24,824 nucleotides of DNA, taken from the IMG/VR virus record IMGVR_UViG_3300050821_003111. One strand, 5' to 3'. The notes below the pieces were generated by a model. It was not told where the DNA came from, searched no databases, and saw only the letters and a list, made by a program, of their open reading frames with translations. Shown here piece by piece: positions 14,951-16,141 of the stretch. The translations under genes and the position numbers were made by a program. Every line of letters begins with the position of its first letter. Positions within the stretch are counted from its first letter, which is position 1. The DNA is from a virus.

Positions 14951-16141
14951 CTAAAGTCCATTGAATTCATCCGCGTTTCTAATATATACTTCTTTTCCTA
15001 GTATTTTAGGTTCAAATTGTTTCCAGATTTGGACTTTCCAGTCCCCGCCTGATAAGCACGCGAACAATATCGGGTGAAGATTCGCCGGCTCCTGTTGTAT
15101 AGCCATGGCCCACACTTTCCTAGTAGCCCTCTCGTCAGGCTTGGGCGTCGTTCTAGTAAGCTGCGATGTAGAGAAAATCGCCACTCTTCCAAACGCTGAT
15201 ATAGCTTCAGATTCGGTTTTATCATACATCCTCTGAAATGTGGTTATCCACCCTGTACACCATTCAACAAATTGTTTGTTATGAATAGCTGGTCTCCACA
15301 AAGCTTCAGGATCATATCCAGACATCAAATGTTCCCATATACCTTTAGGGTTTAGACCTGTAATTACTTTATGTAGTCTAACATATTCCTCGGTTTTTAT
15401 TTTTATACGAAGCGGTATCGGGGCTTTAGAGTTCCAGTACTGGAGGACAAAACCCTCTCTATTTGATTCCGCAAATGATTTGCATTTTTCAAGGGTAAAT
15501 TCTTGATATTCTGTAGCCACCCGAAGCCCATTACGATTTCCCCATGTGCTAGTTTCCTCAGACGATAACTCAAAACCTGTCTTGATGTTAACGAGCCCCA
15601 AAAGAACGAGACCCTCGTACTCATAGCTGACGACAATTCTGTTCTCCTTATAGATGATTTCGAAGAGAGGAGTATATCCTTCTGGCCAATCAGGATCAGT
15701 GTATAATCCCGAGTCAGAAGGATGGTAATGCTCATTATACCACTTGGTAGCCCAGTTAGCCTGATCAGAAGCGAATGAACCTCTGGTGGCAATGTAAGGT
15801 TTTCCAGCATAGTGATAGAGGATACCCAGAGACCCATCAAGCTTTTCTAAGACCTTCGGCTGCCAGGAAGGCAGGTTAACTTCATGAGTCTCTGGTCTGA
15901 AGGAGGTGTTCAGATTGAAGAACTTACGAAATGGTCTAGCTAGTACATCTCCAGTACCCGAATCAACTATTAATCCACGACATTGCTCAGTAACACTATC
16001 CCATATATTATCATGCTGAGCAACATGAGTATAGTTATAAATCTTCAGATTAGGATAATCTGGATGTTTTATCTCGGATACAACACCCTTAAAGATGTGA
16101 TCCTTAAGAAGACTGACATTCAGTAAGTCGTTTATGTTCAA
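14951..16141 (-). CDS. RNA ligase 1 (T4 RnlA/gp63 family)
   Basis: Collinear with T4 Rnl1: YNYTHV.. / YNYASY.., CRGLIVD / CRGIMFE, RPFRKFFNLN / RPMEKFFNLN, and lysine-adenylation motif I KLDGSLG (T4 KEDGSL). TTG start with AAGGAG 8 nt upstream. Confidence 0.85.
   Translation of the reverse strand: MNINDLLNVSLLKDHIFKGVVSEIKHPDYPNLKIYNYTHVAQHDNIWDSVTEQCRGLIVDSGTGDVLARPFRKFFNLNTSFRPETHEVNLPSWQPKVLEKLDGSLGILYHYAGKPYIATRGSFASDQANWATKWYNEHYHPSDSGLYTDPDWPEGYTPLFEIIYKENRIVVSYEYEGLVLLGLVNIKTGFELSSEETSTWGNRNGLRVATEYQEFTLEKCKSFAESNREGFVLQYWNSKAPIPLRIKIKTEEYVRLHKVITGLNPKGIWEHLMSGYDPEALWRPAIHNKQFVEWCTGWITTFQRMYDKTESEAISAFGRVAIFSTSQLTRTTPKPDERATRKVWAMAIQQEPANLHPILFACLSGGDWKVQIWKQFEPKILGKEVYIRNADEFNGL

Follow-up and report, generated by a model that had tools for sequence, protein, structure and literature searches.

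The gene at 14951-16141 of this viral DNA probably encodes an active RNA ligase of the Rnl1 family that does the sealing step when broken tRNA is healed and sealed in the classical T4 manner, and a full-length T4-type polynucleotide kinase/phosphatase (Pnkp) is encoded on an overlapping contig, 2,587 bp past the right end of the stretch analysed. That stretch, the window, is an entire contig of 24,824 bp with the genome continuing beyond it, and as such the lack of a kinase within it is an edge effect. A preliminary description of this DNA had read the locus as an Rnl1 without Pnkp, with a calcineurin-like phosphoesterase as the only candidate for healing the RNA ends, and had named a canonical pnk elsewhere in the genome as the result that would overturn this reading. 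The Pnkp gene, which is canonical and is conserved in two relatives, does overturn it, and since it lies only 2.6 kb outside, the locus belongs to a common type of RNA-repair kit known from other phages and is no kinase-less variant. A window that covers only a fragment, as a contig does here, is no basis for calling a gene absent. The features concerned are listed below in the coordinates of the window.

2718-2810, minus strand: atypical tRNA-Ile(UAU)-like gene of 93 nt (ARAGORN)
3656-4204, minus strand: calcineurin-like metallophosphoesterase of PHROG 547 (E 1.6e-44; Pfam Metallophos_2, 29.9 bits, and Metallophos), possibly an accessory RNA 3'-end healer
6132-7334, minus strand: tRNA-Arg(UCU) at 6132-6208 and tRNA-Leu(UAA) at 7248-7334 (ARAGORN, Rfam)
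8663-8932, minus strand: reduced bacterial type-A RNase P RNA of 270 nt (Rfam RF00010, 106.3 bits against a gathering threshold of 100, E 6.5e-32, full model span)
10482-11036, minus strand: SpoU/TrmH-superfamily 2'-O-methyltransferase (Pfam SpoU_methylase, 56.2 bits)
11100-13520, minus strand: major-vault-protein-like protein (Pfam Vault_3 repeat and MVP shoulder/SPFH), between the Thg1-like and SpoU genes
13541-14299, minus strand: bacterial-type Thg1-like protein (TLP), a templated 3'-5' nucleotidyltransferase (Pfam Thg1, 102.7 bits; PHROG 4717, E 3.6e-84)
14280-14834, minus strand: two small ORFs of 67 aa (hydrophobic) and 116 aa (Cys-rich), between the Rnl1 and Thg1-like genes
14951-16141, minus strand: Rnl1-family ATP-dependent RNA ligase of 396 aa (single ORF; Pfam, PHROG, catalytic residues, AF2 model)
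16104-16782, minus strand: six tiny ORFs (32-45 aa) starting MKWW, MSWW or MIKWW, immediately preceding the start of Rnl1, with which the array overlaps
22873-24162, minus strand: second ATP-dependent RNA ligase of 429 aa, DraRnl/NgrRnl (Rnl5) type (N-terminal OB and nucleotidyltransferase domains)
24351-24533, minus strand: tRNA-Leu(UAG) and tRNA-His(GUG) (ARAGORN, Rfam)
27411-28355 (window-equivalent; 5808-6752 of the overlapping contig L001), minus strand, as Rnl1: T4-type Pnkp of 314 aa, P-loop kinase and HAD phosphatase (AAA_33 and HAD_PNKP domains)

The assignment of the ligase to the T4 Rnl1 type, already made in the preliminary description, is upheld by several comparisons. The ORF opens with a TTG codon, with an AAGGAG Shine-Dalgarno sequence 8 nt upstream, and its product scores 71.9 bits against Pfam RNA_lig_T4_1 (PF09511; gathering threshold 28.3), aligns full length with PHROG 562, the T4 gp63 family (residues 4-382, E 6e-62), and also matches T4 Rnl1 structures in the PDB. 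In an alignment of 121 sequences the protein keeps T4 residues R54, K75, F77, K99, D101, G102, E159, E227, G228, K240, K242 and Y246, and the catalytic residues are invariant over all the sequences aligned. Nucleotidyltransferase motifs I, Ia, III, IV and V are present (K100, G103, R120, E161, E229, G230, K247 and K249), the lysine nucleophile K99 of T4 being K100 here, and the Rnl1-specific N-terminal residues R54, K75 and F77 of T4 correspond to R55, K73 and F75. Only the equivalent of T4 K119 is changed, to the arginine found at this position in 119 of the 121 sequences. Inactive-looking ligase motifs, which according to the preliminary description would undermine a repair interpretation, are not what the alignment contains: all T4 Rnl1 catalytic residues are kept, and the protein is apparently an active enzyme. 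Its AF2 model (pLDDT 91) is helical at residues 251-374 and finds T4 Rnl1 (2c5u) as its best Foldseek match in the PDB (E 1.5e-17), with fungal Trl1 ligase domains next; 399 columns are aligned with 2c5u, but at a TM of 0.5 and an rmsd of 15.6 Å. BLASTP similarity to T4 Rnl1, at 25% identity, stops near residue 309, and against NCBIfam TIGR02308, the T4 RnlA equivalog, the protein scores 60.1 bits where the cut-off is 242.25. Judged by these comparisons it is a member of the family and no close orthologue of T4 RnlA, and because of the low score and low identity its substrate specificity could differ from that of the T4 enzyme, in which the preference for tRNA is conferred by the C-terminal domain.

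Within the window the preliminary description was correct that there is no P-loop kinase: a search of all frames gave neither a Walker-A kinase motif nor a HAD motif, and the window ORFs scanned contain no kinase domain. The Pnkp gene is carried by the 39-kb contig L001, positions 9339-12603 of which are 100% identical to window positions 24824-21560, the 3,265 bp at the window's right end. Its product matches T4 Pnk (1ltq) with an E-value of 6e-25 over both domains, and conserves 13 of the 13 T4 positions checked (K15, S16, D35, R38, D85, R126, D165, D167, R176, R213, D254, D277 and D278). For the exact phage, the linkage of Pnkp and Rnl1 rests on the 3.27-kb overlap at 100% identity together with synteny in relatives, not by one contig: exact-sequence look-ups with Rnl1, the NMNAT-Nudix protein and a 126-aa ORF returned no record and no single contig with both genes of this phage, single-protein searches for related loci in IMG/VR gave only three distant loci for Rnl1 and none for Pnkp, and a 33.9-kb ENA contig that starts at about window position 21521 runs past the left end of the window, away from Pnkp.

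The island of Pnkp and Rnl1 is conserved in a clade of uncultivated large phages. In both relatives, L006 and L008, which have phage genomes of ~215 kb, the order of Pnkp, second ligase, Rnl1, Thg1-like gene and NADAR is kept; in L006 Pnkp, the Rnl5-type ligase, Rnl1, Thg1 and NADAR all lie on one contig, and in L008 the C-terminus of Pnkp is encoded 10 kb upstream of Rnl1. The SpoU gene was found in one of the two (L008, 72% identity). When the complete window was compared at the nucleotide level with 50,697 phage records, only tRNA-sized matches emerged, and the clade therefore has no cultivated relative among them. At the protein level, Streptomyces phages account for 133 of the phage records matched by Rnl1 and for 133 of those matched by Pnkp, and the best cultivated-phage match for Rnl1 is in Arthrobacter phage Bauer, where its gene (38671-39723) directly adjoins that of Pnkp (39744-40634).

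The pair resembles pseT and rnlA of T4, which repair PrrC-cleaved tRNA-Lys, in that both enzymes are homologous over their full length with conserved catalytic residues, and the two genes share one strand in a phage genome where tRNA genes and a second RNA ligase are likewise found. It differs in the distance of both proteins from their T4 counterparts (Pnkp is about as remote as Rnl1, which falls below the RnlA equivalog cut-off), in the second ligase, which is Rnl2 in T4 and of Rnl5 type here, and in spacing: pseT and rnlA are 1.4 kb apart, whereas 11.3 kb separates Pnkp from Rnl1 in the present phage. Given this distance, and the adjacency of the genes in phage Bauer, Rnl1 and Pnkp need not be co-regulated here. 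What has been observed are the family assignments, catalytic residues that are all intact, the physical linkage with Pnkp and a gene order kept in the relatives; from these we infer substrates, an order of reactions and a host nuclease as follows. A host anticodon nuclease or similar RNase would cut tRNA to leave 2',3'-cyclic phosphate and 5'-OH ends; the HAD domain of the phage Pnkp would strip the 3' phosphate and its P-loop kinase domain would phosphorylate the 5' end; and Rnl1 would reseal the loop via ligase-AMP and AppRNA intermediates. The remainder of the island, with its nick-sealing Rnl5-type ligase, Thg1-like 5'-end repair, SpoU, tRNAs, RNase P RNA, NAD+ salvage and NADAR, may form with this pair a package sustaining translation against host defences.

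Repair of host tRNA is not the only role that the pair could have. The ligase and Pnkp might act instead on rRNA or phage mRNA that toxin RNases or CRISPR-associated RNases have cleaved, or the ligase on precursors of phage tRNA or RNase P RNA, and the phage tRNA genes, RNase P RNA and templated 5'-end repair polymerase of the island would suit such a role, as would the C-terminal domain of the ligase, only loosely T4-like where BLASTP identity has ended and the Foldseek superposition is poor. We nevertheless regard this as improbable, since no direct evidence for such substrates was found and the sole characterised biological role of Rnl1 with Pnkp, according to the T4 annotation, is the repair of tRNA anticodon-loop breaks. 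Much less probable still is a chiefly non-catalytic protein, akin to T4 gp63 in its tail-fibre attachment function, the presence of which would say little on RNA repair; although both functions are named in the PHROG 562 family name and in the T4 annotation, the invariance of the catalytic residues and a neighbourhood of RNA enzymes, not tail genes, argue against it.

The proposal that the phosphoesterase at 3656-4204 heals 3' ends for Rnl1, as in the Pnkp of Clostridium thermocellum (CthPnkp), either replacing the T4-type Pnkp or working in parallel with it on other ends, is in our view unlikely. The metal-binding motifs of the protein are intact in translation (SDTHFGH, HLGD, GNHD and GHSHGG), its gene is conserved in both relatives, and like CthPnkp it is a calcineurin-superfamily phosphoesterase in a ligase-bearing genome. 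Calcineurin-like phosphatases have been noted in some jumbo-phage RNA-repair systems (PMC7824862). Homologues belonging to PHROG 547 lie within ~1.5 kb of a short Rnl1 and an AAA_33 kinase of 134-138 aa in Vequintavirus SYGMH1, Klebsiella phage K54_rec5 and Pseudomonas phage GEC_PNG3, two of these three clusters also encoding a cREC cyclic-phosphate domain, and in SYGMH1 tblastn of four segments covering the record found no T4-type Pnkp, with the small kinase matching weakly. Because such neighbours recur in three cultivated lineages, a role of the PHROG 547 family in RNA end healing is plausible, and these clusters in coliphage, Klebsiella and Pseudomonas phages could offer a tractable system for healing by a metallophosphoesterase. 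In the present phage, however, the replacement version fails, because Pnkp is there in full and its HAD phosphatase is intact. The phosphoesterase could at most be a second enzyme for end healing, either redundant with Pnkp or complementary to it. CthPnkp is a single protein that unites a kinase, a metallophosphoesterase and a ligase, and in the Vequintavirus and Pakpunavirus-like clusters the homologues have an Rnl1-family ligase and a small P-loop kinase nearby. In the present phage the phosphoesterase is not fused to a kinase or ligase and has neither as a neighbour, with Rnl1 11 kb away, no kinase in the window, and a tRNA gene, SSB and peptide deformylase, with no ligase or kinase, beside it in all three related phages. 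Moreover, the genome differs from the CthPnkp system in having a HAD-type Pnkp and no Hen1, and the protein has no detectable similarity specific to CthPnkp or lambda phosphatase: Aquifex aq_1665 was its sole phmmer match at E <= 1 among all PDB chains. PHROG 547 is also common in phages of Vibrio (376 records) and Staphylococcus (116), neither of which is among the ten leading genera for Rnl1 (the tenth has 35 records), and no ligase is annotated near the phosphoesterase in Vibrio phage D436, Bacillus phage phiAGATE or Rhizobium phage TM30.

With T4-type healing and sealing as the preferred reading, the other genes of the island bear out the view, also put forward in the preliminary description, of a heavy investment in tRNA integrity: two active-looking ligases, a bacterial-type TLP, SpoU, tRNA genes and an RNase P RNA. 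The Thg1-like, SpoU and calcineurin-like phosphoesterase genes that had been described are confirmed by their Pfam matches. A second ligase is likewise present, but not of the Rnl2 type suggested for it. Its Pfam domains are PHA02142 OB (PF21189) and RNA_ligase (PF09414), so that the extra domain is N-terminal and OB-type; it scores 153.1 bits against NCBIfam TIGR02306 (RNA_lig_DRB0094), above the cut-off of 151.15; and the nine PDB entries that it matches by sequence at E <= 0.1 are without exception RNA ligases of Naegleria (~2e-15), with T4 Rnl2 absent. An N-terminal OB domain followed by the nucleotidyltransferase domain is the arrangement of DraRnl (Deinococcus radiodurans) and NgrRnl (Naegleria gruberi), from which the present protein differs in its length (429 aa against 340 aa) and in an insertion between the domains; its motif I reads EKIHG, as in T4 Rnl2. 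The TLP is nearer to bacterial TLPs, aligning with that of Bacillus thuringiensis (4kgk, E 9e-61) through the RIDG and SDE (QSDEISI) catalytic motifs, than to eukaryotic Thg1 (human Thg1 3otb, E 2e-8; Thg1 entry 3wbz, 1.8e-12). No specific NCBIfam family could be assigned to the SpoU protein. The 116-aa Cys-rich ORF had no match in the domain scan or PHROG search, but a counterpart with 35% identity is present in L006. NAD+ salvage enzymes and NADAR also belong to the island.

ARAGORN finds five tRNA-like genes in the window, where four had been counted, one of the five being atypical. This tRNA-Ile(UAU)-like gene has no Rfam match at E <= 1, yet its predicted fold (z-score -3.2) is a clean cloverleaf, in which the D-loop has 4 nt and there is an extra arm; at the syntenic site L006 has a canonical tRNA-Ile(UAU). 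The tRNA-His gene encodes G-1, C73 and CCA, and since all of these are supplied by the genome, the Thg1-like enzyme is not required for G-1 addition; we reject the idea that it is necessary for G-1 on the phage tRNA-His. The RNase P RNA gene had been overlooked in the preliminary description. Relative to RF00010, 97 model positions are replaced by 18 nt and ~23 further positions are deleted; both relatives have a copy at the syntenic site, scoring 130.3 bits in L006 and 53.2 bits in L008, and divergent copies on other viral contigs are embedded among arrays of ~20 or more tRNA genes. A literature search on phage-encoded RNase P RNA found nothing specific, which is no proof of novelty. If the RNA is active, some phages supply their own ribozyme for tRNA 5' processing. 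We advance only tentatively, as somewhat doubtful, the further suggestion that the island might be a largely self-sufficient phage system of tRNA maturation and repair, which would combine a phage-encoded type-A RNase P RNA of 250-270 nt, two parallel end-healing chemistries (the Pnkp HAD domain and PHROG 547), two ligases, a 5'-end repair polymerase and a 2'-O-methylase.

Kits for RNA repair have already been published for jumbo phages, in the catalogue of Iyer, Anantharaman, Krishnan, Burroughs and Aravind 2021 (PMC7824862), and the present case is one more uncultivated clade, with its T4-style Pnkp/Rnl1 pathway inside an apparent counter-defence island. Those kits likewise include tRNAs, Rnl1/Rnl2-class ATP-grasp ligases, PNK-HAD, occasional calcineurin-like phosphatases, Thg1, NAD+ salvage (NAPRTase and NMNAT-Nudix) and NADAR; in contrast, RNase P and vault appear nowhere in the text of that paper, and the present phage has genes of both kinds.

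Three more unusual features lie beside the repair genes: the reduced RNase P RNA, a major-vault-protein homologue and arrays of MKWW mini-ORFs. The vault-like protein has 6,893 homologues, many on very large contigs, and its gene is absent at the equivalent position in L006 and L008. SPFH/Band-7 scaffolds are associated with RNA-repair systems. Any link of the vault-like protein to RNA repair would be conjecture; a literature search on vault proteins in phages found nothing specific, again no proof of novelty. The MKWW-type peptides belong to no PHROG family. The stops and starts of their ORFs overlap or abut, and a similar array precedes Rnl1 in both L006 and L008.

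The ligase that the preliminary description placed at the centre of a distributed tRNA-repair kit is a real member of the Rnl1 family, and a complete T4-type polynucleotide kinase/phosphatase (Pnkp) is encoded just beyond the right end of the window. The features concerned are:

14951-16141, minus strand: Rnl1-family ligase, a single ORF of 396 aa with a TTG start
27411-28355 in window-equivalent numbering (5808-6752 of the overlapping contig L001), same strand: Pnkp, 314 aa, 2,587 bp outside the window
3656-4204, minus strand: calcineurin-like phosphoesterase, PHROG 547

The Rnl1 start codon is preceded by AAGGAG 8 nt upstream. 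The start-to-end homology read from the sequence was borne out by PHROG 562 (T4 gp63 family; E 6e-62, residues 4-382) and Pfam RNA_lig_T4_1 (71.9 bits, gathering score 28.3), and three T4 Rnl1 crystal-structure sequences were also matched. Alignment with T4 Rnl1 and 119 database homologues showed that R54, K75, F77, K99, D101, G102, E159, E227, G228, K240, K242 and Y246 (T4 numbering) are kept, and that T4 K119 corresponds to arginine, as it usually does in this family (119 of the 121 aligned sequences). The ligase motifs thus do not look inactive, and on these catalytic residues the enzyme is probably functional. Its AlphaFold model is confident (pLDDT 91), with best PDB matches to T4 Rnl1 (E 1.5e-17) and then to the ligase domains of the fungal tRNA ligase Trl1. 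Pairwise identity with T4 Rnl1 is only 25%, and the NCBIfam T4 RnlA equivalog model scores far under its cut-off, which places the protein in a divergent branch of the family.

The statement that no P-loop kinase accompanies this ligase holds for the window itself, where a search of every frame gave neither a Walker-A nor a HAD motif and no kinase domain was found among the ORFs scanned, but not for the genome. The exact protein sequence of the second ligase retrieved a JGI contig of 39,248 bp, Ga0210404_10000188 (L001), which at its end matches window 24824-21560 at 100% identity over 3,265 bases and therefore extends the sequence beyond the right end. The proposed search for a kinase outside the window, when run on this contig, found the full Pnkp, with AAA_33 and HAD_PNKP domains. 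T4 polynucleotide kinase (1ltq) matches it over both domains (E 6e-25), Capnocytophaga Pnkp1 is a further match, and PHROG 505 'polynucleotide kinase' matches at E 9e-64. All of the T4 Pnkp residues checked (13/13) are conserved, including P-loop K15/S16, NRDD-motif D35 and R38, R126, and, in the phosphatase, D165, D167, R176, R213, D254, D277 and D278. In the exact phage Rnl1 and Pnkp are joined by contig overlap, and were not seen together on a single contig. Two independent assemblies (JGI Ga0210404_10000188 and ENA k141_1621833) end within about 40 bp of one another, at window about 21520-21560 inside the NMNAT-Nudix gene; this break point at ~21.5 kb is bridged by the window contig only, and may reflect variation between strains or an assembly problem due to repeats near the MKWW mini-ORF array at 21979-22490.

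Two related uncultivated phage loci, L006 and L008, confirm that an island with both Pnkp and Rnl1 is the normal arrangement of the clade. A single contig of L006, whose Rnl1 is 68% identical, carries in order Pnkp, OB-ligase, NMNAT-Nudix, NAMPT, Rnl1, Thg1-like and NADAR genes; in L008 (Rnl1 60% identical) the Pnkp C-terminus lies 10 kb upstream of Rnl1 and gene order is otherwise similar, SpoU included. The best cultivated-phage match of Rnl1 is in Arthrobacter phage Bauer, where its gene (38671-39723) lies right next to that of a polynucleotide kinase (39744-40634); in T4, by comparison, pseT is 1.4 kb away from rnlA. Streptomyces phages account for 133 records of Rnl1 and 133 of Pnkp.

With a canonical Pnkp on the overlapping contig, the phosphoesterase is no longer needed as the healing partner of Rnl1, the role earlier proposed for it. 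Our initial expectation was that it has no part in RNA repair: it is 11 kb away from Rnl1, has a tRNA gene, SSB and peptide deformylase as neighbours in 3/3 related phages, and has the uncharacterised Aquifex aq_1665 as its sole PDB sequence match, while PHROG 547 comprises 1,323 phage records, mostly from Vibrio and Staphylococcus phages, genera outside the ten most frequent of the Rnl1 match list. This expectation was changed in part, however, by three cultivated phages in which homologues cluster compactly with a kinase and an Rnl1-family ligase:

L015, 3200-5555: Vequintavirus (Escherichia phage SYGMH1)
L019, 4001-6834: Klebsiella phage K54_rec5
L021, 4001-6840: Pseudomonas phage GEC_PNG3

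The kinases are of the AAA_33 type (134-138 aa), the ligases short (~305-325 aa), and a cREC domain is present in 2/3. As annotated in SYGMH1, a 136-aa kinase immediately precedes the phosphoesterase homologue, opposite a divergently transcribed 304-aa ligase and a cREC cyclic-phosphate-processing domain; K54_rec5 has all four within ~3 kb, and GEC_PNG3 has the same set without cREC. No T4-type HAD-domain Pnkp was found in SYGMH1 by tblastn of four segments, the small kinase alone matching, weakly. The neighbourhoods inspected in Vibrio phage D436, Bacillus phage phiAGATE and Rhizobium phage TM30 showed no link of this kind. Such kinase-phosphoesterase-ligase clusters would be analogous to a CthPnkp healing module divided among separate genes, and calcineurin-like domains sometimes supply the phosphatase in a jumbo-phage survey (PMC7824862). 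From these neighbourhoods, end healing by a metallophosphoesterase has a real precedent in other phages; here, with Pnkp present, the enzyme is not its replacement, and even a second or complementary healing activity is unlikely.

The other repair components named in the preliminary description, like the phosphoesterase, are all present, with two corrections to type and number:

22873-24162, minus strand: second ligase (OB-ligase)
13541-14299, minus strand: Thg1-like protein
10482-11036, minus strand: SpoU methylase
2718-2810, minus strand: atypical tRNA-Ile(UAU)-like gene, 93 nt (ARAGORN)

The second ligase, described as an Rnl2-type fusion, is assigned by its sequence to the Rnl5 type: it passes the NCBIfam DRB0094 (DraRnl) equivalog cut-off, matches Naegleria RNA ligase structures in the PDB and carries its OB domain at the N-terminus; it is not of the Rnl2 type. 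Characterised Rnl5-clade ligases seal nicks in duplex RNA. The Thg1-like protein is classed as a bacterial TLP (Bacillus thuringiensis TLP, E 9e-61, versus human Thg1, E 2e-8), and TLPs perform templated 5'-end repair; G-1, C73 and CCA are already encoded in the phage tRNA-His gene, so that G-1 addition is not obligatory. The tRNA-like genes number five rather than four. In the tRNA-Ile(UAU)-like gene a 7-bp acceptor stem with ACCA is accompanied by a D-loop of 4 nt and an extra stem-loop, and the T-loop is non-canonical. Its fold is clean (z-score -3.2), and the Rfam tRNA model does not match it even at E <= 1. A canonical tRNA-Ile(UAU) occupies the corresponding position in L006.

Pnkp and Rnl1 thus combine family membership and intact active sites with linkage and synteny. 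As to substrates, reaction order and host nuclease, we infer a T4-type heal-and-seal pathway in which Pnkp would act on 2',3'-cyclic-phosphate and 5'-OH ends to leave 3'-OH and 5'-phosphate, and Rnl1 would then seal the healed ends. The conserved island would add replacement tRNAs, a nick-sealing ligase, a 5'-end repair polymerase, a 2'-O-methylase, NAD+ salvage and NADAR. It is exactly the type of kit described from jumbo phages, with tRNAs, Rnl1/Rnl2 ligases, PNK-HAD, sporadic Thg1, NAD+ salvage and NADAR (PMC7824862); the type is already known, and the sole unusual claim, that of a kit without a kinase, fails.

A protein search showed the window to be a complete 24,824-bp JGI metagenome contig. 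It is gene-dense, with a G+C of ~39% and every credible gene on the minus strand, and among 50,697 cultivated phage records it has no nucleotide relatives except tRNA-sized matches. The nearest Rnl1 homologues, 60-72% identical, include several whose contigs span 213-219 kb. Size, tRNA genes, PHROG matches and the many closely packed short ORFs without annotation indicate that the source is a large uncultivated phage of the jumbo type; virion genes are absent from the window, and we therefore infer the phage assignment. RNase P RNA is also encoded:

8663-8932, minus strand: reduced bacterial type-A RNase P RNA, 270 nt (Rfam RF00010)
L006 16466-16714 (130 bits) and L008 15389-15576 (53 bits): syntenic copies in both related large phages
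L067 2424-2746 (92.5 bits) and L110 3059-3392 (78 bits): divergent type-A-like copies

The window copy scores 106.3 bits, above the gathering score of 100, with 18 nt replacing a 97-position model stretch and another stretch of ~23 positions deleted. The divergent copies come from IMG/VR viral contigs, where they are embedded in arrays of ~20 or more tRNA genes. A literature search for phage-encoded RNase P RNA found no paper.

Further genes of the window include:

11100-13520, minus strand: major-vault-protein homologue, 806 aa, with Vault_3 repeat and MVP shoulder/SPFH domain
19523-21968, minus strand: NAD+ salvage pair, NAMPT and bifunctional NMNAT/Nudix, common to the window and L006
9511-9978, minus strand: NADAR domain protein, common to the window, L006 and L008
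4664-5806, minus strand: glutathionylspermidine-synthase-like protein (E 2e-144)
17430-18371, minus strand: TAXI/TRAP-type solute-binding protein with a signal-peptide-like N-terminus
1529-2182, minus strand: peptide deformylase
16104-16782, 21979-22490 and 10134-10390, minus strand: eleven mini-ORFs of 32-47 aa, starting MKWW, MSWW or MIKWW

The homologue of eukaryotic major vault protein is an insertion that separates the Thg1-like gene from SpoU, and is absent from the corresponding position in L006 and L008. The database holds 6,893 homologues, of which many come from very large contigs (454 kb, 894 kb) whose dense ORFs are mostly unannotated; the homologue of the 894-kb contig adjoins an RlaP RNA-ligase-associated nucleotidyltransferase. 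The NAD+ salvage pair and NADAR resemble a set of genes that would counter host defences based on NAD+ depletion or ADP-ribosylation. The glutathionylspermidine-synthase-like, TAXI/TRAP-type and peptide deformylase genes are uncommon auxiliary genes in phage.

The mini-ORF starts usually continue with xR, and the peptides are basic, rich in Trp, Tyr and Arg, and without a PHROG match. Their stops abut or overlap the next start. At the DNA level, TGAARTGGTGG is present 8 times where 0.01 copies would be expected, and every copy is on the coding strand; conservation does not reach past codon six, and synonymous variation is seen at the Lys codon. Further mini-ORFs are found in L006 (ten) and L008 (six; n=16), several at corresponding positions. 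The apparent intergenic gaps before the Rnl1, NMNAT-Nudix and NADAR genes are occupied by mini-ORFs.
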